Shown: positions 4,157 to 38,298 of the stretch, in pieces
How positions within the stretch are numbered: position 1 is the first letter of the stretch
How the letters are laid out: each line of letters opens with the position of its first letter
Source of the DNA: a virus
DNA: 64,000 bases
Virus record (IMG/VR): IMGVR_UViG_3300049460_000134
Span: 51,556-115,555 of that record
Reading direction: 5' to 3' (one strand)
Notes under the pieces: model-generated
What the model was told of the DNA's origin: nothing
The model's input: only the letters and a program-made list of their open reading frames with translations
Database searches by the model: none
Translations under genes and position numbers: made by a program

Positions 4157-4337
4157 GAAATAGCGCTTGCGTCCCAATCGCGCATCGTTATAAATGCTCT
4201 TGTAAGTAAATACTGACTGACACGAAAGCGATGTGTCAGTCAGTTCCAGCGATCGAAGATCAACCGCTCTACGAGGTGTCGCCTTATGAACCGCTAAGTC
4301 GGGTTTATCAGTCAAAATTGATTAAGAAAAAGACGTC

Positions 4338-4473
4338 GCCAGGAGCCGTCAGAAAATAAACCTGGCTCTTATGTGAGTGGAGCGCGAAGGCTGAGCTAAA
4401 GGCCTGTTGTATTCGCGATGCAGCGAAACGAGAAAACCGGATTCTCGCGTAGCGGGCTCCGCTCACATAAGAG
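4338..4473 (+). ncRNA. Candidate structured RNA (18-bp closing stem enclosing three hairpins)
   Basis: 4366-4383 pairs with 4456-4473; internal hairpins at about 4388-4405, 4406-4424 and 4429-4447; no ORF. Confidence 0.5.
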
Positions 4474-4544
4474 ACCTGACGAGGACTGCGGTGAAGTCTC
4501 TCGCTTACAAGCGTGGCTAGGGTTCGAGTCCCTTAAGGGTCGCC
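4473..4544 (+). ncRNA. tRNA-like element (atypical or degenerate)
   Basis: T-arm AGGG-TTCGAGT-CCCT, GG-containing D-like loop, GACC/GGTC acceptor pairing; anticodon loop of only 6 nt (TTACAA); no CCA. Confidence 0.45.
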
Positions 4545-4571
4545 TGTTCAACACCTACTGAGGAGAAGCGC

Positions 4572-4856
4572 ATGTCTGCCACCATTCTTGCATTCAAGCC
4601 GCGTTCTAAGCCAGAGCCGGAGTCCGTAAAGCAGCCGGCGCCTAACCAGCTCGAGATTTCAAAGTTTGAGTGCGATCACCTCGACCGCGTGATTGATCGC
4701 GCCGTCCATGTGCTTGACGTCATCCACTCTGGTCCGGCGCTCATCAAGCAGTTCCTCGCCGGCCAGCGCACGATCGCCTCCACCGTCAAGCACGGCGGCG
4801 TCGAATACGAGCTGCAGATCAGCCTCGTCGAAAAGCATTCCCCTCGCTTCGCATAA
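4572..4856 (+). CDS. Hypothetical protein
   Basis: AGGAG SD and ATG. Confidence 0.7.
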   Translation: MSATILAFKPRSKPEPESVKQPAPNQLEISKFECDHLDRVIDRAVHVLDVIHSGPALIKQFLAGQRTIASTVKHGGVEYELQISLVEKHSPRFA

Positions 4857-4868
4857 TAGGAGATTCCA

Positions 4869-5114
4869 TTGCGAAACTTTCTTTCTCGCCTTTTCCGCCG
4901 CAACCAGACGATCGTCACGAACGTCTCGGTCAATCACCAGGTCAACGTGATCCGTGATGACGCCGACTATATCGACGCGCTCGAAAACCGGATCGCCGAT
5001 CTCCTGGTCGCCAACACCGACTACGTGATGCGCCTTCAGGCTCGCGGCATTCGCGTCAAGGAGCTCGAGACGGAAAACGCCGAGCTGCGCGCACAGATCC
5101 CTGTTGCGGCATAA
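4869..5114 (+). CDS. Hypothetical coiled-coil protein
   Basis: AGGAG SD, TTG start. Confidence 0.65.
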   Translation: MRNFLSRLFRRNQTIVTNVSVNHQVNVIRDDADYIDALENRIADLLVANTDYVMRLQARGIRVKELETENAELRAQIPVAA

Positions 5115-5119
5115 CGCAC

Positions 5120-5326
5120 ATGGGGCTTTCGGCTAACGGGAAGCCTATAACGCCCTACCAAGGCTCGTGGGCATGGAAAATGGAGCAGCGCCGCAAGCTC
5201 GGCGCGCTTCGCGAGCAAGAAACCACCCTCTTCATCAATGGCAACAATCGCGAGGCTGCAGAGCGTCGCGACGAAGCCGCAGATCTCGAAAGGAGCTTAC
5301 ATGGCGGACAGACGCCTAACGACTGA
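5120..5326 (+). CDS. Hypothetical protein
   Basis: Operon packing. Confidence 0.5.
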   Translation: MGLSANGKPITPYQGSWAWKMEQRRKLGALREQETTLFINGNNREAAERRDEAADLERSLHGGQTPND

Positions 5327-5531
5327 AGACAGGCATACGCCGAAGTTGAAGCAGATCGCCGGTCTCATCCAGGGACTGACCTTCCGCGAAATGCAGCATA
5401 TCTCGGAATTGCTGAGGGATGAGCTGCAAGTGAGCGGCTCAATGCCTGTTACCGATGCGCTGCTAAAAGTTGCCGACAATCTTCTCGGCTTCGACACGCA
5501 GACCGGAATTCCCTTTCGTTCCGCTTCCTGA
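5301..5531 (+). CDS. Hypothetical protein
   Basis: AGGAG SD before ATG at 5301. Confidence 0.6.
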
Positions 5532-5550
5532 AACAATAAGGACACCTCCT

Positions 5551-6546
5551 TTGACCTTTCTCATCAATGACCCTGTGACGAAGATCACCGGCGACTACAG
5601 CTTCGACGGCACGGTCGTCGCAGCATTCGACAAGCAGGACGGCAAGCAACGCTACGTCGTCGAGGACGATCGCGGCGCGCTGCATATCTACAGCGAACAG
5701 AACCTCCGGCTGATCGGCAACATGGCTGATCACCAGTATCTGCGTGTCCTCAAGAAGCTGCTCGACAAGGGCGTCTATCGCGAAGGTCGCAACGGCGGCA
5801 CTTATGGTCTCTTCGGCGAACAGATGCGCTTCGACCTCTCTCGCGGCTTCCCGCTGCTGACGACCAAGAAGGTTCACTTCCACTCCATCGTCGTTGAATT
5901 GCTCTGGTTCCTCCGCGGCGAGACGAACATCAAGTTTCTGAAGGACCATAACGTCTCGATCTGGGATGAATGGGCTGACGAGAAGGGTGATCTTGGTCCG
6001 GTCTACGGCGCGCAGTGGCGCACCTGGCCGACGATCGAGCATCAGTGCGCCGATATCTACTATCCCGGCCACATCGACCAGATCCAGAAGGTGATCGACG
6101 GCCTCAAGCGCGATTCATACGGTCGCCGGCACATCGTCTCGGCATGGAATCCGGCTGAGATCGATGAAATGGCGCTTCCGCCCTGTCACTGCCTCTTCCA
6201 GTTCTTCGTGTCTGACAACAAGCTGAGCTGCCAACTCTACCAGAGGAGCGCAGATTGGTTTTTGGGGGTCCCATTCAACGTTGCCTCATACGCGCTGCTG
6301 ACCATGCTGATTGCGCGCGAAACCGGCCTTCAGCTTGGCGAATTCGTGCATAGCTTCGGCGATCTGCACCTCTACGCCAATCACATCGAGCAGGCCAAGG
6401 AGCAGCTCACTCGCGAGCCGCGCAAGTTGCCGAAGGTGCTCATCAATCCGGACATCGACAAGCACATCTTCGACCTGGAAGTCGGTGACGTCGCTCTCGT
6501 CAACTACGATCCCCATCCAGCGATCAAAGCGCCGGTCTCAGCGTAA
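5551..6546 (+). CDS. thyA: Thymidylate synthase with N-terminal DfrB/R67-like SH3 domain
   Basis: [27 protein letters not shown] and PFN motifs; probable TTG start at 5551 gives a ~57-aa N-terminal domain resembling R67 DHFR. Confidence 0.92.
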
Positions 6547-6630
6547 GATATCCACGCGCAACCCAACATTTCTTGCGCTATTGTGTCAGTAACAATTGAC
6601 TGATAGCGCGAGCAAAGATAAGGACGATCC

Positions 6631-7924: not shown

Positions 7925-8020
7925 GCCACACGAAAAAGCCACGCGCATCCCAACTGCGCGTGAGCTATTCAGTAATTATTGACTGACAACAAACAAGAAC
8001 AGACACAAGGAGACAGAAGC

Positions 8021-12282: not shown

Positions 12283-12935
12283 ACACTGAACGCAAATCCA
12301 ATTACATGCACACTTCGAACGGCAAGAAATACTGGCCGCTCGATCCGCGCCCTGAAGAAGTCCACCTCGAGGTCGTGGCGCACCACCTGGCAACGCGTGC
12401 TCGCTACAACGGCGCAACGCAGCATCCGGTCTTCAAGTCGCGCATCCTTTTCTCGGTGGCTGAACACTCGGTTTTGGTGTCTCGCTTCATCGAGGAAGAG
12501 CTTGGTCGCCCTGATCTGGCGCTCGAAGGTCTCATGCACGACGGCTCCGAAGCGTTCAACGGCGATCTCATCCGGCCGCTGAAGTATGACGACAGCTTCC
12601 GTGCGCCATTCCAGCGCGTCGAGGTTCTGAACGAGAAGGCCAATGCTCTGCGCTTCGGTCTGGTCTATCCCTATCCGGAAGAGATCAAGATCGCCGACGA
12701 GGCTGTTACCGCGGCTGAAGTCAATCAGATCATCGTCAAGGCGCCTGAAGATGACTGGAGCTTCGGCAAGCTGCATGACGACACGCGCGTCGCGCCATAC
12801 GAGATCGAAATGCTCCTGCCCTACGAGGCCAAGGTGCTCTTCCTCGATCGCTTCTATGAATTGGCTCGTCGGCGGAAGGTTGAGGGATATGAAAGATATT
12901 TCGACGCCTCGCTTGCATCCCAATCTGCTGCGTGA
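12279..12935 (+). CDS. HD-domain 5'-deoxynucleotidase (YfbR/YfdR-like)
   Basis: RYNG, SVAEHS and LMHDGSEAFNGD motifs. Confidence 0.85.
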   Translation: MNTERKSNYMHTSNGKKYWPLDPRPEEVHLEVVAHHLATRARYNGATQHPVFKSRILFSVAEHSVLVSRFIEEELGRPDLALEGLMHDGSEAFNGDLIRPLKYDDSFRAPFQRVEVLNEKANALRFGLVYPYPEEIKIADEAVTAAEVNQIIVKAPEDDWSFGKLHDDTRVAPYEIEMLLPYEAKVLFLDRFYELARRRKVEGYERYFDASLASQSAA

Positions 12936-12947
12936 CATTGTCAGTAA

Positions 12948-13208
12948 ATGCTGACTGACAACTTTAAGCAATCGAACGACGAATGGGTGAGCTTCAACTC
13001 GGAGCTCACCCGTAAACTTGAGACGGTGATGGAGCGGTGGGTGACGAACCACACGCAAGGCAAGATCACCGATCGCGAGCTTTACATCCTGACGAGTGCG
13101 CTCTGGGACACATGCTCAGGGCTCACACAAGAACAGCCTTTGCGCCTCCTCGAGCAAATCAACAAGGAGCTGCGCCTGAAGATGAAAGCAGAACGGTCCA
13201 AGGCATGA
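12948..13208 (+). CDS. Hypothetical protein
   Basis: Operon packing. Confidence 0.6.
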   Translation: MLTDNFKQSNDEWVSFNSELTRKLETVMERWVTNHTQGKITDRELYILTSALWDTCSGLTQEQPLRLLEQINKELRLKMKAERSKA

Positions 13209-15029: not shown

Positions 15030-15122
15030 CATATCCACCCGAACCCCTGCGTGCGCTTCGCTATAACGTATTTGTAAACGAAAACAACGCGCTAGCGAAG
15101 CGCACAGCAAGGAGCTTTTGAA

Positions 15123-17450: not shown

Positions 17451-17656
17451 CTAGTCGGCGCGTCCCATGGCAAGCCTCGACTTAGGGATGTCCTGTCTTA
17501 TTTACCCTTTAGTAAATATTGACTGACCGTCCGCATCGCCGAGACTGGCGGTCAGATTGGATTTTAGAATAAACGATTAACCATCATCAGTATCCACCCG
17601 AAATCCTCTATAGCGTGTATCAATGTATGAACGCGCTAACGAAGTAGAAAGGTTGA

Positions 17657-18333: not shown

Positions 18334-18446
18334 TAGGGTGCTAGAAAAAAGTGAGCATCCCTACGTTTAGTGAACTATTATGATGCACTAATTAAACAGA
18401 TATCAATCGATAGCGTTGCCGCTATGTTACAGTTAGGAGAGGTAGA

Positions 18447-19939: not shown

Positions 19940-20016
19940 TACGCACTATCCGCGCGCTTCCCTGCGTGCGCTGTGCGATAAGTAATTATTGACTGACAAA
20001 TCAAGGAGATAGTCGA

Positions 20017-23926: not shown

Positions 23927-24069
23927 GGCTCTAGTTGTGTCAGTAAATCCTGACTGACTCCTGACATATCCACCCGAACTCCTGTCTCAGACATGCGATA
24001 ACAAATCATCGAAAGAGACGACGCATGTCCGCATGCGTCAGTAAACACTGACTGACAAGAGGATTTGGC

Positions 24070-26828: not shown

Positions 26829-26932
26829 GTATCTATTAAGCCAACAATTCCAGCAGCTTAGCCGACTCTATCCAGTCGGACGCCTTTGTGCGTCGCGCTA
26901 AGATGCATCATCAACAACGAAAGCGACACGAC

Positions 26933-27226
26933 ATGAAGAAGACGCTTTCCACCCTCTTAAAGCACTGCGCATCGCTCGGCATGACGTTCGTCTGCTACTA
27001 CGACGACTTCAGCGATCCAGACTACAGGGGCACGAGCCAGCCCGCCGCCAAGGAGGCGCTTGAGGCTTGCGACGTCATGAACCTCGTTGTCCTCGACAGC
27101 GAAGGCAAGCGTTGGGGCTGGGCGCTCATCGTCAATGAACACGGCCAGAATCCAGAAGAGCAGGTCGCCGACTACACGGCGAGGGATCCAATCAATTTTT
27201 GGTTCAATCCGGAGGAGGCGGCATGA
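26933..27226 (+). CDS. Hypothetical early protein
   Basis: ATG at 26933 after a promoter motif. Confidence 0.65.
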   Translation: MKKTLSTLLKHCASLGMTFVCYYDDFSDPDYRGTSQPAAKEALEACDVMNLVVLDSEGKRWGWALIVNEHGQNPEEQVADYTARDPINFWFNPEEAA

Positions 27227-29011: not shown

Positions 29012-29039
29012 AGGCCGCCACGGAGCGGCCTTTTCTTTT
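29012..29039 (+). terminator. Intrinsic terminator
   Basis: AGGCCGC-CACGGA-GCGGCCTTTTCTTTT. Confidence 0.7.
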
Positions 29040-29108
29040 GGTCTGGTTAGTCAGTCAATATTGACTTACAATAACGGAAAGATTTCCCCTTTCTATTGGA
29101 GACACGAC

Positions 29109-29744
29109 ATGCCAGCGCCGAAAAATGACATCAGACAGTTCCGCTTTAAGGTGCGGATCACCGCTCTCGGGCGAGAAGAATACACCGGCAAGATCGCCAA
29201 GGTCTCCTTTAAGGACGGGCTTTCCGAGAATTTCGTCAGCTATCAAGAGGCGATGTCCGTCTGTGCGACTATCACCGCCGAGATCTCTCCGGATTACGGC
29301 GACGGCGATCTGAATTTCAGCCCCGCCAGCCCCGCCCTTCTTGCGGCTCAATTTGCTACCGAGCGCGAAGACGATGCGCCCGATACGGTAGCAACGAAGG
29401 TTGTCCTGCCCAATGTCGAACCGCTCGCCATCAAGACCATCCAGGGTTCTGAATACTTGCTGAGCGACAGCGACGCCGGCTATCTGCTCGACTTCGAGGA
29501 GGGCTGTGAAATCACTGTGCCGAGCGGTTTGAAGGAAGGCTTCTACTGCTCGCTGCGACAGGGCGGCGACGATCAGATCGAGGTCGCCGGTGATGATCCC
29601 GAGATCGGGCGTGCCGTGATCGTCGAGGAAATCGACGACCTGTTCTTCTCCGAAAAGCGCCTGGCGATCCTGCACCTGGCACGATTCCCTGATGGCAGCT
29701 TCCAGCTTACCGGCCGCACCGGCGAAGAGCAGGAGTCGGCGTAA
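29109..29744 (+). CDS. Putative virion fibre adaptor
   Basis: N-terminus resembles that of the 56098 product; C-terminal YLL..SDAG...ITVPSGL..GF...Q fibre-type domain. Confidence 0.55.
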   Translation: MPAPKNDIRQFRFKVRITALGREEYTGKIAKVSFKDGLSENFVSYQEAMSVCATITAEISPDYGDGDLNFSPASPALLAAQFATEREDDAPDTVATKVVLPNVEPLAIKTIQGSEYLLSDSDAGYLLDFEEGCEITVPSGLKEGFYCSLRQGGDDQIEVAGDDPEIGRAVIVEEIDDLFFSEKRLAILHLARFPDGSFQLTGRTGEEQESA

Positions 29745-31918
29745 TGCGTCACCCCTTCCTCTCCCGCTTCGATCATAGCGGCCGCTCCGGATCTTCCGGT
29801 GGCGTGCCGCGCTTCACCCTTGACTACGACTCGATCGCCGAAGATTTCGAGATCGGCTGGTCTGTTACCAGCCTCCTGATCAACGGCGATACCAACGATC
29901 CTAACTACACCAGCTTCGTCATCGTCGATGACCCGGATGGGAGGTTCTCGATCAGCGGAAGCACTCTGTTCCTTGCTGCTCTGGTGGATTACGAGACCAA
30001 GTCGAGCCACGACGTGTCGATCATGGCTATTCACGCTACCGACCCGACCAAGAACATCGTCAAGACCTTCACCATCCAGGTCGAGAACCTTGCAGAAGGC
30101 CTGCTTGGCCCGACCGTGGCGAGCTTCATCTCGGGTGCGGCGCCTGGCACGGTCGTTTGCGACATCACCGGTCTAGACGTCAGCGTGAACGAGCGGCTTT
30201 TGGCGATCCTGTATCCCGCGAACAACAAGGTTGTCATCAGTCCGGACGGCATGCAGCTCCTTGTGGGCACAAACCTTCAGTCGGCAGGACAGACGGAAAC
30301 CCTCAGCATTGTTACCAACCGTGGCCGGAATCTCAACATCGATGTCACCGCCCAGTCGGCAGAGCAGCCGATCTACCGCGTGGCAACGCGTCAGTATGGC
30401 ACCGGCTACAACGCCGAAAGCGTTGCGCTGACTGGCGATGGCTCGACCAAGACCTATACGACCTCGCTCGTCAACGAGAGTGGTCGGCAGATGGATACGG
30501 TCGCGATCGCATTCCAGGGCTGGGGTCTCATCACGACTGGCACGCAGCCTGTCGGGAACGACAACACCATGTCTGGCACGATCACCTACAATGGCGTGAC
30601 GCAGAACTTTCAGGACGTTGTGGTGCCCAATGGTGACGACACGCAGAATGCGGATCTTGCTCTCTCGACGCCGATCCCGGCAGGCGCAAGCTTCAGCATC
30701 AACCTTAGCTCTCCGGTCGCAAGCGGTGCCAAGTATCCGCCGCGGCTTGGCTTTGCTGGCGTGCTGACCAAGGCTCTCGAGTCCGAGCTGGAGCCTGCCT
30801 TCTACGGCATCGGTGACTCGATCGCGACCAACAATGGCGCAGCACTCATGAACGCCTCGATCGGCAAGTGCCCTGTCTACCAGGCGTCGATCGTCGGAAC
30901 GACCGCACAAGCCTATGGCGAGAATACCGCCAACTTCCTGCGCCAGAAGAACCTGGCAAAGCGGCTTGGTGCGGACTTCTTCTGCGACTTCGGCACCAAC
31001 GACCTGATCGCCAGCAAGACGCCGGCGCAGATCCTCGGCTGGCTGAAGAACATGCGCGATCTCGCCAAGGCAGACGGTATCGGCTGGATCCAGACGACGA
31101 TGCTGCCGCGCGTCACCAAGAAGGCAGCGGTCGCCGTGACCAGCCTGACGTCCGATGGCATCAGCAACAGGATGAAGATCAAGGTTGCGGACGCGTCGAT
31201 CTTCACGATCGGTCAGGCCTACTCGGTGGCAGGCGCAACACCGGCTGGCTACAACGGCTCGACGATCTGTGACGGACTCGACCTTGCACAGAACGAGGCA
31301 ACCTTCATCTGCGCCAATGGTCTCGCGAGCCCCGCGACCGGCACGATCACCATCACGGCTCGTAATCCGACCAACACGGCCTACTGGCAGCAGCCGGCGA
31401 ACTCCAACTACAATCCAGGCGCGGCAAGCCCTCGTGGCGTGTTCAACACGGCAGTTCGAAATGGACCATCCAGCGGTGACTTCGACGCCTTTGTAGATTG
31501 GGCGGATGCCGTAGAGCCCTTCCGTGACAGCGGCCGCTTTGCCGTGGCTGGCGAAAAGGGCAAACTGCCGTTGCCTGTCATCGCGACCGTCATCGCCGGC
31601 GGCACCAGGACGACCACGCGTTTCAATACCGACTACGGCGTTGGGTCGAGCACGACGGCAAACGGTCTGGTGCAGTTCATCACCGGCGCCAATGCCGGCC
31701 AGCTCAAGGGCGCATCGAACAACACCGCCGGCGACATCACGTTGCTGACGGCTCTGACCGCGGCTCCGGCTGTCGGCGACAAGATGTGGGTTTGGCCTGG
31801 CGTCTGCTACCAGTCCGACGACGGTATCCACGACCGCGTCTCGACAGGCGGCATGGGTGGGCAGGTGCTCCTCGATGATGAGACCCAAGAGTTCCTCATC
31901 GAAGCGATTGCCGCCTAG
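29744..31918 (+). CDS. Cadherin-like domain plus SGNH/GDSL esterase, probable virion fibre or spike
   Basis: LVDYET cadherin motif; GDS, GTND and DGIH SGNH blocks; Thr/Gly-rich beta content. Confidence 0.75.
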   Translation: MRHPFLSRFDHSGRSGSSGGVPRFTLDYDSIAEDFEIGWSVTSLLINGDTNDPNYTSFVIVDDPDGRFSISGSTLFLAALVDYETKSSHDVSIMAIHATDPTKNIVKTFTIQVENLAEGLLGPTVASFISGAAPGTVVCDITGLDVSVNERLLAILYPANNKVVISPDGMQLLVGTNLQSAGQTETLSIVTNRGRNLNIDVTAQSAEQPIYRVATRQYGTGYNAESVALTGDGSTKTYTTSLVNESGRQMDTVAIAFQGWGLITTGTQPVGNDNTMSGTITYNGVTQNFQDVVVPNGDDTQNADLALSTPIPAGASFSINLSSPVASGAKYPPRLGFAGVLTKALESELEPAFYGIGDSIATNNGAALMNASIGKCPVYQASIVGTTAQAYGENTANFLRQKNLAKRLGADFFCDFGTNDLIASKTPAQILGWLKNMRDLAKADGIGWIQTTMLPRVTKKAAVAVTSLTSDGISNRMKIKVADASIFTIGQAYSVAGATPAGYNGSTICDGLDLAQNEATFICANGLASPATGTITITARNPTNTAYWQQPANSNYNPGAASPRGVFNTAVRNGPSSGDFDAFVDWADAVEPFRDSGRFAVAGEKGKLPLPVIATVIAGGTRTTTRFNTDYGVGSSTTANGLVQFITGANAGQLKGASNNTAGDITLLTALTAAPAVGDKMWVWPGVCYQSDDGIHDRVSTGGMGGQVLLDDETQEFLIEAIAA

Positions 31919-32220
31919 CGCGGCAGTTGGCCAAGGATCCACATGTTATGATCCTTGGCCCCACACTTTCGGCACCTAAGCATGTGCTTCAAGGAGCCAA
32001 TATACGTATTGGCTCCATATTTCCTGACCAGCTCCCAGCGATCCACCCATCCGTCATGCTCGCATTTGATGCAGTGTCCGCCGAGCGCATAATACTCAGG
32101 CAGATCATCAAAAACCGTGTGCTGTGGATCCATGAGTGGTCCCAGGTAGGTGATGCCGTCAGACGGTCGCCGCACCAGTTCCACACCTCGCCGGTGTTTC
32201 ATTGTTCCTATTTTGTTCAC
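31915..32220 (-). CDS. Zn-ribbon hypothetical protein
   Basis: CIKC...CRKC. Confidence 0.6.
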   Translation of the reverse strand: MNKIGTMKHRRGVELVRRPSDGITYLGPLMDPQHTVFDDLPEYYALGGHCIKCEHDGWVDRWELVRKYGANTYIGSLKHMLRCRKCGAKDHNMWILGQLPR

Positions 32221-32233
32221 TAAACAGCCGGAG

Positions 32234-32605
32234 TCAATTAGCCTCTGGTGATATGGCAGGTTTTCTTTTCCTCGAGCCCTTCAGTTTCAGCCGTGGCTCA
32301 GGGCGCAACTGGATATACTCTTCCAGCATCATGAGCATTTCAGCAGCCGCGGCGGCCGCCACGAACGCAGCTCTTGCCTCTTCCGGATCAACCTTGCCTT
32401 CCATAGCGGCCAGGCACACCAGTTGCGCGTTCTGCCACTCCTCGCCGCGGTCATCTTCAGGCCAGCGGAAGACCAGGCTGTAAGCCAGGTCGCCAAGGGT
32501 AGCGTGCCGGCGCATGTTCACGCCTTTGCGCTTCTCGATGCAGACGATGGCATCGCGGATGCTCATGTGCTCGCCAATGTATTCAGCCATACGCATTACC
32601 TCCAA
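32234..32605 (-). CDS. DUF982-like protein
   Basis: WP....EW..A...CLAAMEG...PEEARAAFVAAA. Confidence 0.7.
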   Translation of the reverse strand: MEVMRMAEYIGEHMSIRDAIVCIEKRKGVNMRRHATLGDLAYSLVFRWPEDDRGEEWQNAQLVCLAAMEGKVDPEEARAAFVAAAAAAEMLMMLEEYIQLRPEPRLKLKGSRKRKPAISPEAN

Positions 32606-32739
32606 GGGAGTCCAAGGTAGGCGTCACATGTTACGAATCCAAGAGCCATATTAGAGTCGCCTAAAAGAATCTTCCGAACATAGCCGCGAGCTTCCCAGCA
32701 GCGAGCATGCGATAACAAATCATCAAAGACGAAGAGAGA

Positions 32740-33130
32740 AAGAGAGCTAACAGTGAGATCGCCATGTGAACGATGAGGGTAGCTACCTCGACCGCAAATA
32801 GCTCGGCTCCGATTAAGCTCGTCACGCTCATACGGTAGGCAGACCGCTACAATAGAGGATGGGATAGATATGCGCCCTACCCTCCGGCTGCTGAGTCCGC
32901 TTTGTCGCCCACTCGCTTAGAGATCCGGGGTGAAATCAATCCACCTGTATGCCTTGCGCCGAACCCTTGACCCCGGCAGGCGCATTGTCACAGCGAGCCA
33001 TCGCTTGATTGCTCACGATCCACTCCCTACGCGGTGAAGAATGTAGCCTCGTTGTGAACCGAAGGACCGCTCGGAGTGAGATCAATGAACAATCGCCGCA
33101 AATAGCCACTTGGACGCCGTTCTCAAGTGT
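32740..33130 (+). ncRNA. Candidate ~390-nt structured non-coding RNA
   Basis: ORF-free; follows a promoter motif; many hairpins; duplicated GTGAGATC...TGAAC...CCGCAAATAGC module. Confidence 0.5.
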
Positions 33131-33173
33131 CGTATTCAGTAATTATTGACTGACAAACACGAAAGAGCGAGCT

Positions 33174-33395
33174 ATGAAGCGCAAACCGACAAAGACCATA
33201 GAATTCACAGCGGCTGAGCACCGCGTCATCACGGCAATCGTCAACGCTATCCAGTTCGGCGGCGACGTCGTCGTGGCAGCTCAGCGCGCCGAAGAGCGCA
33301 ACAACGATGTGAAGCCGGTCGCTGAAGGTTCCGAGGAGGAACTAATCATCTGGGGTAACATCACCGATCTCTTCCAAAAGATCCGGCTCGCCTGA
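33174..33395 (+). CDS. Hypothetical early protein
   Basis: Follows an operator. Confidence 0.65.
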   Translation: MKRKPTKTIEFTAAEHRVITAIVNAIQFGGDVVVAAQRAEERNNDVKPVAEGSEEELIIWGNITDLFQKIRLA

Positions 33396-33406
33396 AAGGA
33401 ACAACA

Positions 33407-33871
33407 ATGACCAAGGAACAAATCGCCGAGATCTGGGACCGGTATTTCGAGATCGTCAGCGAGGACGATGATGACGTCGTGCCGGTGCATGGCGAGCTGG
33501 CTGAGAAGCTCAAGGCTCTGATCGCTGAGGCGCCATACCAGGGCAAGGATCCGATGTTCTGCACTGGCTTCTGGACATACGAGGACGGCAACCGTGCCTT
33601 TGAGATCAGCCTCCACCTCAACAGCGGCGAATCTGCCATCTGCGACGCCGACGTCCCTGATGTGGATAAGCGCAGCGATCGCCTCGACAAGCTGCGCTGG
33701 GCCCAGATCCGCGCATTGCTGACGGTGGACGAGGCAAACGCCCTAGTCGAGTGTGCTGAGGCAATGGACCAGTTCGCCGACGAATGCGAGTCTCAAGGCA
33801 ACGAGGTGTCAGCAGACGAGCTTTGGACCAAGGCAGGACTCGTGCAAAGCATGATGGCGTGCGCTCCATGA
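33407..33871 (+). CDS. Hypothetical acidic protein
   Basis: AAGGA SD. Confidence 0.7.
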   Translation: MTKEQIAEIWDRYFEIVSEDDDDVVPVHGELAEKLKALIAEAPYQGKDPMFCTGFWTYEDGNRAFEISLHLNSGESAICDADVPDVDKRSDRLDKLRWAQIRALLTVDEANALVECAEAMDQFADECESQGNEVSADELWTKAGLVQSMMACAP

Positions 33872-34023
33872 TGACGGCAGCATATCAGACCAAGCTCCTC
33901 AAAGACCGTCGCACCTTGGCGCAGAGTAAGGTAAAGGCGTTGGCAGAGGGCGACGCCAAGCGAGCCGCTTACGAGAAGTGGATCGCCGAGCTCGACGAAC
34001 AGATAATGGCTCTAGGAGGCTAG
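33868..34023 (+). CDS. Small helical protein
   Basis: ATGA overlap. Confidence 0.5.
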   Translation: MMTAAYQTKLLKDRRTLAQSKVKALAEGDAKRAAYEKWIAELDEQIMALGG

Positions 34024-34496
34024 GTATGATTGGCACAATTGAGCTCATGGCGTTCTTCTTCGTCGGCGGACTGATGTTCTGCACCGGCGTTCACTTCGAG
34101 CGCTGGCAGGTTCGCCAGGAGCAGAGGAGAGAATGGAATGACCGCTGATCCACGCCTAACCCGATCATTCGGCATCAAGTGGCCGCGGATCTTCCCTGGG
34201 ACTATCTGATCCCTGGGTGTGTCACTGCCATCAAGAAGAGGCGCGAGCAAGCTGGGCACGACTTCATCCGGCTCTACGAGGCCTTCTACAAGAGCCGATA
34301 ACAGTTTCAGGTAGGGGATCTGTCCGTGCTTCCCCTACAGCGCGCAGCCGGCGGTCGTGCTACCAAACAACACCGGCAGACTGCAGCCGTTCTCTTTCGG
34401 CGGTGATGCAGCATAGAGAGCCACGCCATACCCCAGGCGTGTGAAGTAAAGAGCGACTGTTGGCTCTTTCTCTCTATAGCCAGGTAGAGCCGTGGC

Positions 34497-34964
34497 ATGC
34501 CATATCTCTCGCAGAGGGAGATACAGATGATTGACCAGGCGAAATACGACAAAGAGCTCGAGGAATGGCTCGAGAATACACCGACCTTGGCTCACGAGCG
34601 CCGCGCACTCGATAAGCTTAGAGCTGCCTACCAGGCGGTATTAAGCGATCCGCGGTTCAAACTCTCCCCTTGGCTTGCAAATGTGGTCCGCAGCGACGCC
34701 AATAACTATCTGTGGCTCGATATTCGCACGCATGCCTGGAACGAGAACGACGATGCGCAGTGGGTGATGAACTACGACCTTGGGCTCGGCGCCTATTTTC
34801 AATGGGTGAGAAACGACCAGGACCACCAAGTGGTGCGCAGCCGGATCGACGAGAAGGACGTAATCGACCTCGCCATTCAGTTCTGCCTGAAAGCGCTGGA
34901 GAAAGGATGGCTACCGCCACGGTCCTTGACAGGCCAGGCCACGGCACCACTCACAGGCGATTAA
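34497..34964 (+). CDS. Hypothetical protein
   Basis: 155-aa ORF; alternative start at 34527 with GGAG SD. Confidence 0.65.
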   Translation: MPYLSQREIQMIDQAKYDKELEEWLENTPTLAHERRALDKLRAAYQAVLSDPRFKLSPWLANVVRSDANNYLWLDIRTHAWNENDDAQWVMNYDLGLGAYFQWVRNDQDHQVVRSRIDEKDVIDLAIQFCLKALEKGWLPPRSLTGQATAPLTGD

Positions 34965-35075
34965 CAGCCAATCTCCACAACCTCATCCGCTTAACATTAG
35001 ACCGCCCTAATGTTAACTCGAAACCGCGCAGTTAACATCCAATCGTTTAGTGAACATCGCGCCATGCTTAATAGT

Positions 35076-35101
35076 TTAACCTTAGTTTAACACTAACTTA
35101 C
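35076..35101. promoter_or_regulatory. Tandem CtrA-box matches within a TTAAC-rich tract
   Basis: TTAA-CCTTAGT-TTAA-CACTAAC-TTAC; further TTAAC half-sites across 34960-35142. Confidence 0.55.
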
Positions 35102-35174
35102 CCTCAAATGACCGAAATCGAATTTTTCCCTCGAATGTTAAACTCCCCAGAGCACAACCTGCTGACAACGGAAT

Positions 35175-35470
35175 CGCTATAGAAGCTCACACAATCGATC
35201 CGCTCACGTCTAACGATACAGACAGCGCTCTCTATAGCGGATGAAGCTCAGCAACGCTCTCAGCGTCAAACAGCACACAGGTCTCGTCGTATCTAAACGC
35301 TATAGAAACCAGTGCAGAAAACATTCACAGCAACACCGGCTAGAAACAGCTCAATCCATAGAGAGACAGCGACCAGCATAGAGAGCCAATAGACCTAGAG
35401 AGAGGCTATAGAGCACATAAGCGCATAGCGGGGAGAGAGCATAGAGAGGTCCGCGGTATAGAGAGGGAGC
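35175..35470. repeat. Cluster of short (C)TATAGA/ATAGAGAG motifs
   Basis: About ten imperfect copies in an ORF-poor tract; also at 34413, 34470, 35804 and 36867. Confidence 0.5.
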
Positions 35471-35813
35471 TATTGCAAAGAGTCGATGGTGGAAATGCGT
35501 CGGCGCCGATCCTGTCTCGCCAGCCCAATCCACGCCTCGCCTCACCCATCCTGTGCACAGCCGACTTAACCCTTTCGCAACCCGACGCGCGACGCGCTAC
35601 TGTCATTCTGTGACGAGCAGGTGCTCACACGCAGCGAATGATCTGGGGCTGGGGCATTGGATCATCACCTTAGAGGCGGTCTTCACAGGATCGCCTCTCT
35701 TTTTGACCTCCAGGAAAATAGGAACCACGCCAACTCGCCGTCGCAGACGCCAAACCGTAGGGTGCTCCTAATTGCGGACGTGCCTGATGAGCCGGACCTT
35801 AGCCTCTCTATAG

Positions 35814-35879
35814 CCGCGGCATGCCACCTTAAGCCGGAGTGATCCTAGGATGACCGAGGCGTGCCTTGGAAATCCTCGG
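35814..35879. repeat. 10-bp-phased CC/CCNNGG array
   Basis: CC at 35814, 35824, 35834, 35844, 35854, 35864 and 35874; five of these are CCNNGG. Confidence 0.75.
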
Positions 35880-35892
35880 CGAGACCTTCTTT

Positions 35893-35963
35893 CCGAGTCC
35901 GTGTTCTCACTAATATAATCTTCTTATCTACGTATTATCTATTAGTGAGAACATGGCTCCGGA
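35893..35963. repeat. Inverted-repeat element TTCTCACTAATA..AT-rich..TATTAGTGAGAA (copy 1)
   Basis: Near-identical element in the opposite orientation at 50221-50297. Confidence 0.75.
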
Positions 35964-36110
35964 TATGTCCGGAATGTGTCCGTGGCTCTCCATACGCCGG
36001 AACGAGCCTAAACGTGCCGTGAAAAGCCGATTTCTATCCTAAAATCAAAGACTTATGTTCTTCTCATCGAAAGCGAGCGCACTCGAAGCGCGTCACAGAG
36101 GAGAAAGAGC

Positions 36111-36791
36111 ATGCAGTCCACGTCCAACCAGGCACCGGCCACGTCCAAGAAGATAGAGGCCTACGACTTCAAGCAGGCGGCACAGAGCCATACATCTGAC
36201 GAGTTGGCGGCGTTTGCCTTGCGTGTCGAGCAGGCGTTCACCGCAAGAGCGCAGTTCGAGCTCGACCAGACGAGCAACGCCGACGAGCCGATCCAGAAGA
36301 AGCTCGCCACCGCACGCAAGTCCTTCTCTATGCCGGACACACTGCGCGGCATGATCGAACTCAACCTCGATCCGGAGTTCATCAACGGCACGCTCTCCAA
36401 AGACGGCAAAGGCAAGCGCCTGAACGTCTATGCCATCAAGAAGGCGCAGCAGATCGTGGACTTCATGCTCGGCAAGGACAAGCTGCCGGAGGTGCTGATC
36501 GCCTGCCTCAAGTCGATGGTGGCATTCAAGGCGGCCGGCGAGAAGTTCACGGCAGAGTTTTCCAAGGCTGCAGTCTCAGACAAGATCAGGCTCGCGCCAT
36601 CTGCCGGCCTTAAGCTCCTTGTCAGGCACAACGTCGATAAGGCTACCGCCTCGACGCAGGCAAGTAGTAATATGCGCATTCTGCAGGCTCTTGGTCTGGT
36701 GAAGAACGTAGGCAGTGCACGCTCCGGTGTGTATGAGCTGACGGATACAAAGCAGGCGGTAGCGCTTGTGGATCTTCTGAGGTCAGCCTAG
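36111..36791 (+). CDS. Hypothetical DNA-binding-like protein; paralog of 38916 and 15123 products
   Basis: GAGGAG SD; block-wise similarity to the 38916 product. Confidence 0.8.
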   Translation: MQSTSNQAPATSKKIEAYDFKQAAQSHTSDELAAFALRVEQAFTARAQFELDQTSNADEPIQKKLATARKSFSMPDTLRGMIELNLDPEFINGTLSKDGKGKRLNVYAIKKAQQIVDFMLGKDKLPEVLIACLKSMVAFKAAGEKFTAEFSKAAVSDKIRLAPSAGLKLLVRHNVDKATASTQASSNMRILQALGLVKNVGSARSGVYELTDTKQAVALVDLLRSA

Positions 36792-36824
36792 GCCTCGCCG
36801 GCTAGGCGAAACTGCAGAGGGGAA

Positions 36825-36860
36825 GAGGCGGTAGGCACCCAAACCTACCGCCTCGCTTTG
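36825..36860 (+). terminator. Intrinsic terminator
   Basis: GAGGCGGTAGG..CCTACCGCCTC followed by a T-rich run. Confidence 0.65.
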
Positions 36861-36985
36861 TTTTGGCTATAGAGAGACCAAGGATATCCGTGGCAGCGGC
36901 CATTAGGAACCGGTGGGGTCCAAGGGACCGGCCGCTAGAAACCACGCATGTCCGCTCCAGGTGTAGGGGAAGGATTGGGTTGATG

Positions 36986-37032
36986 CCGCGGCGATCCTAG
37001 GCGATCCGTGGCAGGCCGCGGCAAACCTTGGC
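36986..37032. repeat. 10-bp-phased CCNNGGC array
   Basis: CCGCGG, CCTAGG, CCGTGG, CCGCGG and CCTTGG at 36986, 36996, 37006, 37016 and 37026. Confidence 0.8.
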
Positions 37033-37152
37033 TGAGGCATCGCCTCCCCTCTCCTATCCGTGCCTCGCCGGAGTGATCCAGAGATTGCCGATTGCATGCC
37101 TCTCTCTATCATCGTATCAGTAATTATTGACTGACAAACACAAGAGAGACAC

Positions 37153-37485
37153 ATGAAGATCATTACTGAAGCCGAACTGACGAGCGCTATCGAAGACTGC
37201 CTGTGCGAAGTGTTTGAGCTCGTCGTAGGCCAGCGCGCATATCTCGAAGTGCTCACGAATGAGACGGACTACGTCGGCACGCTCATCGAGTATGAGACGG
37301 ACCTTGGCTTTCACAACGCGACAAACGTCTTCGATCTGGACCTAGAGACGCGCAAGTATGCCTTTGAGCGCGCAGTGACTGCCGGCGATGCGAAACAGTC
37401 GTTCTTTGCATATGACAGCCTATCTGATGCGAAAGCACACGCCACGGCGCTGCTATTCGCAAAGCTCGACGGCTACGAAGAATAG
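37153..37485 (+). CDS. Hypothetical acidic early protein
   Basis: Own promoter and operator; GAGAG SD. Confidence 0.7.
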   Translation: MKIITEAELTSAIEDCLCEVFELVVGQRAYLEVLTNETDYVGTLIEYETDLGFHNATNVFDLDLETRKYAFERAVTAGDAKQSFFAYDSLSDAKAHATALLFAKLDGYEE

Positions 37486-37727
37486 GCCATAGCGAGCGTC
37501 GCTGACCGCGGCGCTTTCATTTGGCTTGTCGAGTGCCGTGGCGATCCTTGGAACCCGCCGAGGGGCAGTCCACGCCACACCAGGCCGGTCCAGTCCTCAT
37601 CCGGCCAGGCCAGGTCCACGGCACGTCAGGCCGCCTCACCCTGCAAGACCCCTGCAATGCCGATTTGATCGCCTTTAGCGACTTCGCTAAAACAATAATT
37701 AGCGAAACACGAAAGAGAGACACGCGC

Positions 37728-38051
37728 ATGACCAACGAACTCGTAAAGACCGCCGCCATTGCTCTGCTCAATCATCTGTCCACGATGAACGATGATGCCT
37801 TTGAGCGCGTCGATACCGACTACATCGACTATTCGCCTGACGCGCACTTCACAGTCGCCTTGTTCGACGCGATCGAGCCAGCCAAAGACCGCAACTACTT
37901 CGACATGATTACCGAGTTCACCTACGAGCTCGCCAGTGTCACCAAGAGCGATGACGATCGTGCCGACGTCGATCGCTTCTGCACCAAGCTCTTCTCCGCC
38001 CTCCTCCGTTTCGAAATGAGCGAGAACATCCAGAGTCTCGACGCCTCATAG
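37728..38051 (+). CDS. Hypothetical acidic early protein
   Basis: GAGAG SD, ATG at 37728. Confidence 0.7.
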   Translation: MTNELVKTAAIALLNHLSTMNDDAFERVDTDYIDYSPDAHFTVALFDAIEPAKDRNYFDMITEFTYELASVTKSDDDRADVDRFCTKLFSALLRFEMSENIQSLDAS

Positions 38052-38127
38052 CGCCGACAACATCCATTTGAACGCCTTTAGCGAATTCGCTAAATATTTA
38101 AGTGTCAACAACGTGAGAGCGAGACAC

Positions 38128-38298
38128 ATGCAAACGATCATTCCAGCGCCGACCGTCAGATACCACATAAAAGAAATGACGCCGCGCCAGTCGAACTTCG
38201 CAAGCCAAGCCCTGTCGCTTGCCAAGGAGACTGCCGCCTTCATTGCCTTTATCGTCTTCGTCTGTGCTGTCATCGCCGTGTGCGTGATAATCCACTAA
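38128..38298 (+). CDS. Small protein with C-terminal TM helix
   Basis: ATG at 38128 after a promoter. Confidence 0.55.
   Translation: MQTIIPAPTVRYHIKEMTPRQSNFASQALSLAKETAAFIAFIVFVCAVIAVCVIIH

Follow-up and report, generated by a model that had tools for sequence, protein, structure and literature searches.

GG and CC are excluded from a class of promoter-like sites in a Rhizobium phage-plasmid

A promoter-like class and its surroundings

We analyse a 64,000-nt stretch of DNA (the window) from a 115.6-kb phage-plasmid genome (Rhizobium), whose features are collected in Table 1. A first-pass annotation had proposed that nine regions reaching from the -10 box to the start codon largely lack GG and CC; we find 0 GG and 0 CC in all nine (50-67 nt, GC 0.36-0.50), and the maximal GG/CC-free runs that enclose them measure 60-73 nt each. 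The nine are members of a single promoter-like class, which we call class I. The genome carries at least 28 copies, 17 of them inside the window; because GG/CC-free runs served to build the class in the first place, there is some circularity in its membership (the matrix alone accounts for only 3 sites in the phage genome). The 28 windows group by similarity into 16 clusters, hence they are not 28 independent cases, and 8 of them have the palindrome motif. Calling these sites "early" is a guess. Many class I sites precede replication and nucleotide genes and also carry an operator-like palindrome that occurs genome-wide.

Table 1. Class I sites, the GG/CC-free cassette and comparison features in the window. 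The first nine class I rows enclose the windows of the first-pass annotation; the sites marked additional were not on its list.
Feature	Position	Strand	GG/CC-free run (nt)	Remarks
Class I site	4175..4246	+	72	First-pass window 4177-4243; palindrome motif and hairpin after; no predicted start within 200 nt
Class I site	15047..15111	+	65	First-pass window 15050-15110; run stops at GGAG ribosome site of gene 15123-15938
Class I site	26884..26949	+	66	Through start codon of gene 26933-27226; GG-less leader GAAAGCGACACGAC
Class I site	32696..32762	+	67	No ORF >=100 aa after it on + strand
Class I site	33118..33186	+	69	-10 overlaps palindrome motif; GG-less leader GAAAGAGCGAGCT before gene 33174-33395
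Class I site	36039..36100	+	62	Run stops at GGAG of gene 36111-36791
Class I site + palindrome motif	37100..37172	+	73	GG-less leader AAGAGAGACAC before gene 37153-37485
Class I site	37673..37732	+	60	GG-less leader GAAAGAGAGACACGCGC before gene 37728-38051
Class I site	38076..38143	+	68	GG-less leader GTGAGAGCGAGACAC before gene 38128-38298
Additional class I site	56..98	+	43	Then palindrome motif
Additional class I site + palindrome motif	6564..6622	+	59	
Additional class I site	7951..8009	+	59	Upstream of rIIA; RHEph10 orthologous site likewise GG/CC-free
Additional class I site + palindrome motif	12921..12985	+	65	
Additional class I site	17606..17651	+	46	
Additional class I site	18361..18419	+	59	
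Additional class I site + palindrome motif	19962..20005	+	44	Upstream of HD phosphohydrolase gene
Additional class I site	23982..24029	+	48	
GG/CC-free cassette, 1.35 kb	38444..39789	-		Two minus-strand genes, both with GG-less leaders
GG/CC-rich intergenic tract	36792..37090			CCNNGG units about one helical turn apart (by eye) and terminator-like hairpin
Palindrome motif TGTCAGTAAAAACTGACTTACAAT upstream of portal gene (comparison)	52304..52355	+		GG/CC present in leader
Other palindrome-only late sites	Starts near 50317, 54991, 55053, 56016, 59956, 60014, 60590, 61399			

Class I sites share one layout, in which the -35 position is immediately followed by an invariant CC(C) anchor, and a spacer of 14-15 nt then leads to a TATTAT-like -10 box. 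Many of the -35 hexamers are poor, and when 26000-40200 is scanned with a strict sigma-70 model of E. coli type, 7 sites emerge vs 6.5 in shuffles, only one of the 7 (37085) falling on one of the nine windows. On the coding strand upstream of the anchor, CC recurs about every 10.5 bp, at -43, -33, -22 and -12 relative to the anchor (28/28 at -1, 17/28 at -2, 14/28 at -12, 11/28 at -22, 13/28 at -32 to -34 and 7/28 at -43), and GG is found at hardly any position from -31 to 0 of the 28 sites. Part of the phased CC may reflect the borders of A/T-rich, UP-element-like tracts and not binding sites. From 0 to +41 after the anchor there are just 2 GG/CC cells over 28 sites; GG reappears at +42 to +48, where the ribosome site lies, and density is normal after +56. 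CC is doubly constrained, kept as a positive signal just upstream of the anchor and shunned downstream.

The ban zone, in which neither strand has GG or CC, extends for about 41 nt from the anchor onward and takes in the spacer, the -10 box, the presumed start site and what would be the first ~13 transcribed bases. With a start about 7 nt past the -10 box it would run from roughly -28 to +13, which fits the DNA that RNA polymerase covers at initiation; since it begins in the untranscribed spacer and approximates this footprint, the zone fits an effect on initiation.

The GG/CC-free cassette holds genes 38916-39500 (194 aa, with 1 Gly, 0 Pro and 0 Trp) and 38667-38846 (59 aa), whose proteins have no family match in PHROGs, Pfam and NCBIfam scans; fold prediction gave no usable model (pLDDT 41.8). 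The residual GG/CC sites of the cassette number 16, with 11 in GGTG context, and GGT accounts for 10 of 15 residual GGN. The 361-nt gap at 36792-37152 contains 68 GG+CC, the GG/CC-rich tract within it lying directly upstream of the class I site at 37100. Further tracts like it are at 35400-36030, 37486-37670, 38299-38443 and 39830-39990, and by eye such CCNNGG-type tracts adjoin GG/CC-free windows.

Depletion of GG and CC against controls

The borders of the nine windows were set by flanking GG/CC, which biases p-values, and we therefore added objective borders, opening with the first base past the anchor CC and closing at the predicted start codon. In this set of 29 class I sites (1918 nt; for 4 of the 29, where no start is predicted in the next 200 nt, a constant 60 nt was used, two of the sites overlap, and the borders are approximate because gene calls and start codons are heuristic), GG+CC occurs 49 times vs 166.6 expected from local base composition, and GC+CG 246 times. 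Over +1..+41 of 28 sites (1148 nt) we count a single CC (38.4 expected) and a single GG (46.3 expected). The loss is restricted to these two dinucleotides: CG (1.93) and GC (1.73) are raised and the other 12 lie at 0.89-1.22.

Depletion of this kind might simply follow from AT-richness. Controls matched in length and GC were taken from the same genome, with the cassette and class I sites excluded; for the nine windows they average 3.2-6.0 GG+CC and 0-0.17% of them are empty (Fisher combined p 5e-19), and for the 29 objective windows the 49 GG+CC compare with 145 when the means of the matched windows are added up (Fisher p 6e-25), both p-values being rough because matched windows overlap one another. 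With so few matched-GC controls empty and only GG and CC lost, AT-richness is not the cause. The untranscribed class I spacers (392 nt, GC 0.49) contain 0 GG+CC vs 49.3 expected; the ban covers this untranscribed DNA and both strands, and thus it acts at the DNA level.

The ban is specific to the class. Late leaders are not depleted, those of structural and lysis genes having O/E 1.06-1.19, and the palindrome-only late sites (n=14) have 55 GG+CC vs 51.8 expected after the motif. All 24 palindrome-only sites together have 100 vs 129.8 expected (93 vs 105.2 after the motif), with GG/CC within a few bases of TACAAT. When -65..-11 is tested without reference to the motif, the 52 non-late genes have O/E 0.63 and the 9 late genes 1.19 (Fisher 1.6e-6), and the same test in RHEph10 gives 0.63 vs 1.02 for late genes (p 1.4e-4). 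Upstream windows on R. etli p42d (n=27) have O/E 0.92 and 0/27 are GG/CC-free, so the ban is not a host habit.

GG/CC-free 55-nt windows of GC 0.38-0.50 make up 0.3% in the host sample vs 4.3% in the phage, which has a mild GG/CC deficit throughout its genome (O/E 0.71), with GG/CC odds of 0.75 and 0.69 vs 0.88 and 0.81 in a 50-kb host plasmid sample. The lower odds would suit defence evasion, in which GG/CC is removed as part of restriction sites or of a CRISPR PAM (CC for type I-F, NGG for Cas9). Published work describes restriction-site avoidance and PAM depletion in phage genomes (Kupczok and Bollback 2014, PMC4246573) and depletion of the P. aeruginosa I-F CC PAM (PMC12174588); the shared trait is a short DNA word under-represented through selection, CC/GG being a known PAM. 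The ban in this phage differs in that it is total, local (~41-70 bp), in fixed register and bound to one promoter class, with conserved CC just upstream. Clearing windows of 40-70 bp cannot shield a 115-kb genome in which GG/CC otherwise comes up every 8-9 bp, and no known restriction site is as short as two letters, so that we consider defence evasion very improbable.

Ribosome sites and the sense strand

The first-pass annotation also held that several early leaders use GAAAGAG or GAGAG where late genes use AAGGAG. All five leaders that it named (33174, 37153, 37728, 38128 and the minus-strand start at 38846) do have such purine runs and no GG in -20..-4, but the trait belongs to units that neighbour the cassette and does not extend to the class, most other class I units using GGAG. 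Of the late genes, 31 of 36 have GG in -20..-4 and 21 of 36 have GGAG, GAGG or AGGA. Genome-wide, 150 of 168 predicted genes have GG in this interval; 7 of the 18 that lack it sit together at 26933-38916, and GG-less ribosome sites are confined to 7-8 genes beside the cassette. In these 7-8 units near 38 kb the ban continues through the ribosome site to the start codon, whereas most class I units tolerate GGAG 14-20 nt past the presumed start. Two of the genes are also depleted on the sense strand, with 0 GG vs 15.1 expected in 37728-38051 and 1 vs 8.0 in 38128-38298, CC being normal in both.

These observations bear on avoidance at the level of RNA, in which the first messages would shun GG to escape a GG-cutting ribonuclease or anti-Shine-Dalgarno pairing; the RegB ribonuclease of T4, for instance, cuts GGAG. 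Sense-only GG loss and seven contiguous units with GG-less purine leaders are what such avoidance would leave. However, the untranscribed spacers are equally empty, CC is barred as strictly as GG in leaders and cassette, and GGAG is kept by most class I units. We therefore hold it improbable as the general cause, and no more than an additional layer in the units near 38 kb. A factor that reads duplex DNA would leave the sense-strand loss in the two genes unexplained, which suggests such a second, strand- or RNA-level layer there.

Conservation and possible readers of GG and CC

The ban is conserved in relatives. Across 11 class I windows with orthologues in RHEph10, 123 substitutions have created 0 GG/CC, where a substitution simulation expects 16.6 (random sites) or 15.1 (same sites) and never falls below 4 and 3, respectively, in 5000 runs; new GG/CC is thus under purifying selection. 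A matrix search of RHEph10 that ignored the spacer and downstream sequence gives 11 matches, which in +1..+41 have 0 GG/CC in nine cases, 1 in one and 4 in one (inside a gene), a total of 5 vs 45.4 expected. The 330 nt after the site at 32696 are the only stretch with megablast-level similarity to RHEph10-group phages. Y2_11, N1_15, Pararhizobium plasmid p5 and an IMG/VR contig retain the cassette, their longest runs being 888, 1150, 899 and 206 bp, as well as the GG/CC-free windows beside it with their phased CC. A 115.6-kb plasmid carried by a cultured Pararhizobium has the cassette and its two neighbouring windows likewise free of GG/CC. That selection holds the ban in distant relatives implies that something, a putative reader, reads the GG/CC word.

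It could be objected that there is no real feature here, the windows being GG/CC-free through AT-richness or as copies of one module. Their GC is indeed low next to the genome's 0.57, and the clustering and shared palindrome noted above reduce the number of independent cases. The clusters are nonetheless sixteen rather than one, GC+CG stays abundant where GG+CC is lost, and the matched controls together with the substitution test lead us to reject this artefact as scarcely credible.

In the model of the first-pass annotation, virion DNA modified at GG/CC blocks initiation by the host polymerase, so that promoters firing from incoming DNA avoid the word and late ones need not. A ban on both strands and in the untranscribed spacer, matching the presumed polymerase footprint, agrees with this, as do the undepleted late leaders and an entire transcription unit free of GG/CC; sense GG loss in two genes is loss of CC on the template strand and would fit a blocking mark on C in CC context. 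Leading DNA without a given site is known elsewhere: EcoRI sites are missing from the first-step-transfer region of T5/BF23, and in T7-like phages the end that enters early is comparable. The likeness lies in first-expressed units without a word that a host activity reads, and the cassette resembles such a unit. Those phages, however, lack 6-bp restriction sites in first-entering DNA, whereas here a two-letter word is missing from windows spread over ~70 kb of an element that also lives as a plasmid. Our scans (PHROGs 163 proteins, Pfam 98, NCBIfam 11) contain no DNA methyltransferase, DpdA-type transglycosylase or glycosyltransferase, and a PAPS-reductase-like protein has no DndC match. Moreover, the resident Pararhizobium plasmid keeps the ban, which is thereby not peculiar to virion DNA, GG/CC is ordinary in the early genes that follow the windows, and the conserved, phased upstream CC is not predicted. 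We consider the model unlikely.

No more likely, in our judgement, is an intrinsic promoter property without an outside reader, in which the combination of polymerase and sigma works best without GG/CC steps from -28 to +13; the box ending in CCC at about -30 might be read by a sigma factor of the phage itself or by an activator of MotA type. The stereotyped architecture with CC(C) invariant 14-15 nt before the -10 box, a phage protein with a Sigma70_r2 domain, a zone as long as the polymerase footprint, and CG and GC raised to 1.7-1.9, as though selection favoured a certain DNA shape, would all suit this. Middle promoters of T4 combine a sigma-70 -10 with a MotA box whose centre is at -30, and class I likewise pairs a -10 hexamer with a conserved box, ending ~14-15 nt upstream, in place of a good -35. 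Unlike the MotA box, the class I box is GnAnCCC-like, PHROGs and Pfam scans of the phage proteins found no MotA or AsiA relative, and T4 middle promoters have no known dinucleotide exclusion. Nearest-neighbour values give GG/CC stacks no greater stability than CG or GC, which excludes ease of melting as the reason. Against an intrinsic property also stand the sigma-70-like promoters of the palindrome type, which carry GG/CC within a few bases of the -10, and the undepleted host upstream regions; the 1.35 kb of GG/CC-free coding DNA and the leaders free up to the start codon would stay unexplained.

The explanation that we favour, though tentatively and with somewhat less than even confidence, is that GG/CC is the word recognised by a putative DNA-reading factor and is barred from the zone that polymerase occupies at initiation. 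From the patterns above we infer that class I sites are promoters, where their transcription would start, and that such a factor exists; scans of PHROGs, Pfam and NCBIfam found no candidate reader protein. The factor would be a DNA-binding protein or a DNA-marking activity of phage or host origin. Phased CCs and CCNNGG tracts upstream would position it, its word would have to be missing where RNA polymerase sits at initiation, and its action would also explain why the regulatory cassette is wholly GG/CC-free. As a general principle, selection acts against spurious binding sites near real regulatory sites, and this would explain a CC in fixed register beside a zone cleared of the same word. Known cases of this kind involve longer motifs and weak depletion, unlike class I, where a dinucleotide is, save for the two cells, absent over 28 sites.

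Windows without GG or CC and their architecture

The genome averages 0.118 GG/CC per base, or one GG/CC every 8-9 bp. We find 0 GG and 0 CC in the nine promoter-to-start windows that the first-pass annotation had described as largely lacking both (length 50-67 nt, GC 0.36-0.50). In an unbiased list of GG/CC-free runs of the window their runs, 60-73 nt long, stand at ranks 10-22; all of ranks 1-9 fall within one 1.35-kb block, unique in the genome and carrying two minus-strand genes, which we call the cassette (see table).

The flanks of all GG/CC-free runs of at least 42 nt reveal one architecture common to most: a -35-position hexamer, then an invariant CC (mostly as CCC or GCC), a spacer of 14-15 nt, a TATTAT/TATAAC/GATAAC-like hexamer, a leader and then a plus-strand gene. 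We refer to these sites as class I and to the CC as their anchor. When only the two flanking blocks are used to build a matrix, it recovers 23 sites (20 seeds and 3 new), all on the plus strand and all with 0 GG/CC in the spacer. Including lower-scoring seeds the class has 29 members, of which two overlap, so that 28 are used in later counts; 17 lie in the window. A TAnnnn or GATAAn hexamer stands 12-15 nt past the anchor in 26/26 seed sites (15 nt in 18, 14 nt in 6, 12 nt in 2), a distance that equals a 17-bp spacer when the CCC is counted in.

Sigma-70-type promoters have a TTGACA-like -35 and a TATAAT-like -10 hexamer 16-18 bp apart. The -35 hexamers of class I range from good matches at some sites (TTGCAT, TTGAAC, TTGGAC, TTGATC) to poor ones at many. 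A strict consensus scan of 26000-40200 returns 7 sites against 6.5 in shuffles, hence no enrichment, with only 37085 coinciding with one of the nine windows, and a scripted generic sigma-70 scan picks mostly sites outside class I. In T4-type middle promoters a box near -30, read by a phage activator, replaces the -35. Class I sites have a conserved box ending in CC(C), 14-15 nt ahead of the -10; family scans (PHROGs, Pfam) find no MotA/AsiA relative, and the phage encodes one protein with a Sigma70_r2 domain (Pfam). We infer that class I sites are promoters, with putative start sites downstream of the -10.

From anchor +1 to the predicted start codon of the 29 sites (1918 nt), GG+CC number 49 against 166.6 expected from local base frequencies, a count that, like the other within-genome counts, is partly circular, class membership having first been drawn from GG/CC-free runs, and that depends on approximate gene calls and start codons from our own heuristic. 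Three tests described below lie outside that circularity: the matrix search of RHEph10, the upstream comparison that uses no motif, and the analysis of substitutions. The same 1918 nt hold 246 GC+CG, and most of the 49 GG+CC are in or beside the ribosome site. Over the first 41 nt of the 28 sites, CC occurs once (38.4 expected) and GG once (46.3 expected), with CG raised to 1.93, GC to 1.73 and the other twelve dinucleotides at 0.89-1.22. The untranscribed spacers (392 nt, GC 0.49) contain 0 GG+CC against 49.3 expected.

Aligning the 28 sites on the anchor places CC at -1 in 28/28 and at -2 in 17/28. Upstream it recurs at -12 (14 sites), -22 (11), -32 to -34 (13) and -43 (7), a coding-strand period of ~10.5 bp, and GG is almost absent from -31 to 0. 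From 0 to +41, GG or CC occupies two cells only; GG reappears at +42 to +48 as GGAG ribosome sites, and density is normal past +56. Given the phased CC upstream and the empty zone from 0 to +41, CC is a conserved positive element in fixed register that is excluded immediately downstream. The ban is class-specific, register-bound and coupled with a CC signal, and because it holds on both strands, untranscribed DNA included, it is a property of the duplex. If transcription starts ~7 nt after the -10, the empty zone would span about -28 to +13, which approximates the stretch that RNA polymerase covers when it initiates.

Windows matched in length and GC to the nine, drawn from the rest of the genome, hold on average 3.2-6.0 GG+CC and are empty in 0-0.17% of cases; for the 29 objectively defined windows, the 49 observed compare with a matched-mean total of 145. 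The combined p values, 5e-19 for the nine windows and 6e-25 for the 29, are rough, as matched windows overlap one another. These windows and the GC+CG comparison rule out the AT-richness that would have undercut the first-pass annotation, and chance or composition, which we reject, is almost certainly not the cause. Ease of melting is ruled out by nearest-neighbour values and the CG/GC excess. The baseline observed/expected (O/E) ratio for GG/CC is 0.71 for coding and 0.80 for intergenic DNA, the latter taken over all stretches of at least 40 nt. In a 50-kb sample of the R. etli plasmid p42d, which represents the host, it is 0.88 for GG and 0.81 for CC, and empty 55-nt windows at GC 0.38-0.50 make up 0.3% there versus 4.3% in the phage. 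A general Rhizobium promoter habit is not seen in 27 upstream windows of p42d, a small sample from a symbiotic plasmid (O/E 0.92, 0/27 empty). The 28 windows form 16 similarity clusters, eight having a palindrome motif in common, so the independent cases are fewer than 28 but far more than one; on these clusters, together with the substitution tests, we reject common descent of one module.

GG/CC-rich intergenic tracts directly adjoin the GG/CC-free windows and the cassette, lie immediately upstream of several class I sites, and contain CCNNGG units about one helical turn apart (by eye) and terminator-like hairpins. One stretch beginning at the class I site at 32696 is the sole part of the 4 kb queried with a megablast match in RHEph10-group phages (84-88% identity); it has no plus-strand ORF of at least 100 aa and may be a non-coding RNA or a leader under conservation. 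Long AT-rich inverted repeats (TTCTCACTAATATA ... TATTAGTGAGAA) with flanking CCGG occur at three places, one just upstream of a small-terminase-like gene, where relatives have a variant.

Coordinates of the features discussed (window positions unless another record is named)
Feature	Coordinates	Strand	Remark
GG/CC-free block (cassette)	38444-39789	-	
Cassette genes	38916-39500; 38667-38846	-	
Contiguous genes with GG-less leaders	26933; 33174; 37153; 37728; 38128		named by position
Contiguous genes with GG-less leaders	38667; 38916	-	named by position
Genes losing sense-strand GG	37728-38051; 38128-38298	+	
Near-palindrome examples	1200-1223; 6584-6607; 29049-29072; 39988-40011; 52304-52327; 56016-56039; 61399-61422		
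GG/CC-rich intergenic tracts	35400-36030; 36792-37090; 37486-37670; 38299-38443; 39830-39990		
Stretch matching RHEph10-group phages	32690-33026		
AT-rich inverted repeats	35900-35955; 50229-50290; genome 13444-13498		
GC-rich palindrome	~38589-38606		by eye
Terminator-like hairpin	38648-38622	-	with palindrome, 38580-38650
Anti-defence-like genes	41111-41392; 48724-49011; L003 12722-13168		
Thymidylate synthase	5551-6546		
gp097 and gp098 (RefSeq)	RHEph10 99105-99785	+	
Cassette-protein homologue (tblastn)	RHEph10 99198-99749	-	

Late leaders and ribosome sites

A 20-bp near-palindrome (GTCAGTCAAT|ATTGACTGAC and variants) occurs in ~50 copies genome-wide, upstream of genes of all functional classes, and looks like the operator of one master regulator. 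At structural/late genes it serves as the 17-bp spacer that separates a TTGnnn from a TACAAT hexamer, and in several class I sites it shares bases with the -10. At the 24 sites with the palindrome and no class I element, GG+CC number 100 against 129.8 expected (93 against 105.2 past the motif); the 14 of these in the structural and lysis region have 58 against 66.3 (55 against 51.8 past the motif). We also compared, free of any motif, positions -65 to -11 ahead of every gene with a clear upstream gap, assigning genes to early or late by function only and applying Fisher's test to GG+CC versus GC+CG. In this genome O/E is 0.63 for 52 non-late and 1.19 for 9 late genes (Fisher 1.6e-6, per-window Mann-Whitney 0.029), and in RHEph10 it is 0.63 for 49 non-late and 1.02 for 10 late genes (Fisher 1.4e-4, Mann-Whitney 0.009). 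Late leaders are therefore not depleted, by the palindrome-only sites as well as the motif-free test, and the equal depletion that would have counted against the first-pass annotation is not seen. A purely intrinsic preference of the polymerase is improbable: it accounts for neither the palindrome-type promoters nor the coding cassette.

The first-pass annotation had also noted leaders with GAAAGAG or GAGAG at their ribosome sites. GG occurs within -20 to -4 of 150/168 genes of the genome, and seven of the 18 that lack it are contiguous. All seven of these leaders carry GAAAG/GAGAG-type purine runs, as does an eighth located beyond the window. The five positions that the annotation had named are all among them, but the trait does not extend to the other class I units, which use GGAG. 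Two genes of this group have also lost GG from the sense strand, with normal CC: the gene at 37728 has 0 against 15.1 expected and that at 38128 has 1 against 8.0, and their products contain no Gly and no Trp. The two cassette genes lack both GG and CC. We take the sense-only loss as a second, strand-specific layer around the cassette, beyond what a factor reading duplex DNA would explain. An RNA-level cause may contribute that layer; as an account of the ban itself it is very unlikely, failing on the spacers and on CC.

Relatives of the element and selection against the word

The window (bases 51556-115555 of a 115,555-bp assembly; GC 0.57) belongs to an element with a lambda-like tail module, terminase, portal and capsid genes, a large replication and nucleotide-metabolism gene set, a RepC-type replication protein and ParA (PHROGs and Pfam scans of our own gene calls). 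A T5-type first-step-transfer region is the first-entering end of the genome, bounded by an injection stop. Here the assembly was opened arbitrarily, inside the tape-measure gene, so its ends say nothing about the physical genome ends. The closest named relatives are the 115-117-kb Rhizobium phages RHEph10, RHph_Y2_11, Y2_17_1, N1_10, N1_15 and N2_6, and a further one is a 115.6-kb plasmid of Pararhizobium qamdonense. RepC, ParA, the lambda-like tail and the plasmid relative therefore point to an SSU5-like phage-plasmid, its gene content being of the SSU5/pHCM2 type, and for the same reasons we dropped a T5-like phage. RHEph10, whose host strain in its GenBank record is R. etli CFN42, appears among phages with plasmid genes in Pfeifer et al., 2021 (PMC7969092).

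The trait is kept in several relatives. In RHEph10 the cassette protein shows 46% identity, a GG/CC-free block stands in synteny (runs of 159, 424, 549 and 72 bp), and there are class I windows likewise free of GG/CC. The flank-only matrix finds 11 matches there at a score of at least 14, with 0 GG/CC from +1 to +41 in 9, 1 in one and 4 in one that lies inside a gene, for a total of 5 against 45.4 expected. The block persists in Y2_11, N1_15, the Pararhizobium plasmid and an IMG/VR contig (runs up to 888, 1150, 899 and 206 bp), all four of which also keep neighbouring windows with phased CC.

Across 11 orthologous 42-nt windows, this genome and RHEph10 differ by 123 substitutions, and the RHEph10 copies contain 0 GG/CC; simulating the same number yields 16.6 (same spectrum, random sites) or 15.1 (same sites, random bases), with minima of 4 and 3 in 5000 runs. 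The cassette differs from that of the IMG/VR contig by 245 substitutions, which leave 10 GG/CC against 61.7 and 49.7 simulated. These comparisons of related sequences show that selection acts against the word GG/CC itself, beyond mere conservation of the windows.

What GG remains in the cassette of this lineage is biased: 10/15 GGN are GGT, which makes up 22% genome-wide, and 11/16 sites are GGTG. A GC-rich palindrome, which contains 4/5 of the residual GG/CC outside the GGTG context, stands with a terminator-like hairpin between converging plus-strand units and the minus-strand cassette genes. Homology searches with the cassette protein yield 4 homologues from a large protein set and none from genome_contigs; its single matches in viral contigs and in metagenome contigs are the same contig. 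No family in Pfam, NCBIfam or PHROG matches it, the Atlas places the cassette proteins in unnamed clusters only, and the AlphaFold model (pLDDT 41.8) is unusable. For tRNAs and Rfam families, no match in 32000-41000 falls under E 0.02 or approaches a gathering score. In the RHEph10 record, RefSeq puts gp097 and gp098 on the plus strand where tblastn finds the cassette-protein homologue on the minus strand, as annotated in Y2_11, N1_15 and plasmid p5; the RHEph10 record probably has the wrong strand.

What could read GG and CC steps

GG/CC has gone from the presumed polymerase-occupied part of ~28 putative promoters and been held out by selection while at least a quarter of the surrounding bases changed. 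Since its absence is selected, some component of the cell or phage must distinguish DNA by GG and CC steps. Restriction, PAM recognition, base modification and AT-rich-DNA silencing all leave a local, register-bound, strand-symmetric ban unexplained.

Restriction-site avoidance depletes a 4-8 bp site of a host enzyme across the exposed genome. Here the avoided word has only two letters, and the ban is absolute only in class I zones and the 1.35-kb cassette. CRISPR PAM depletion appears as genome-wide under-representation of the PAM where hosts carry a matching system. The genome-wide O/E of 0.71, versus 0.81-0.88 in the host plasmid sample, is compatible with it, but a local, register-bound ban is not predicted. 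Neither form of avoidance can work via 60-bp windows, and we regard both as highly improbable. We set aside G-quadruplex avoidance, oxidative GG hot spots and CC-specific deaminase mutagenesis, none of which predicts a fixed promoter register or upstream CC.

The first-pass annotation proposed that GG/CC in infecting DNA obstructs initiation by the host polymerase; we read this as a mark on virion DNA that blocks it. Hypermodification systems combine a phage DNA-modifying enzyme (methyltransferase, DpdA/TGT, glycosyltransferase or Mom-like) with non-canonical bases in the virion. No DNA-modifying enzyme of known families is found among 163 proteins (PHROGs), 98 (Pfam) and 11 (NCBIfam), the sole loosely related match being a PAPS_reduct domain (6e-14) in a protein that matches no DndC model (NCBIfam), which discards DndC-type phosphorothioation. 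Moreover, the resident plasmid keeps the trait, and upstream CC is not predicted. On these three grounds we consider the virion-mark model unlikely.

That model is one form of a broader idea, our best reading, which we hold tentatively as quite possibly correct: GG/CC may be the word of a putative DNA-reading factor, either a binding protein or a marking activity. Such a factor would be positioned upstream and would have to be kept out of the initiation zone, and the same putative factor may have shaped the cassette. It is rather unlikely that the two-letter word further sorts promoters into self and non-self, with the factor blocking or marking initiation zones that contain GG/CC and leaving only the GG/CC-free promoters and cassette of the phage-plasmid able to fire. 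In a host of 57-61% GC with 0/27 upstream windows GG/CC-free, this self/non-self reading would mean that essentially every host promoter is affected.

The literature searched holds no description of a promoter-bound GG/CC ban, a thin basis for calling it unpublished. Identifying what reads the word would give a new phage way of separating its own transcription from that of the host, or a new kind of host silencing, and would also supply a sequence rule for spotting first-expressed phage genes. For such work the 60-bp promoter windows are a far easier test object than the neighbouring cassette.

The element also carries anti-defence-like genes. Their matches are to an Acb2/Tad1 hairpin domain (6e-10), to a Tad2-like domain (9e-17) and, weakly (5.7e-6; 26.9 bits, under the Pfam cut-off of 28.6), to Lar restriction alleviation. 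Its thymidylate synthase has an N-terminal extension of ~60 residues ahead of the Pfam match, which begins at residue 61.
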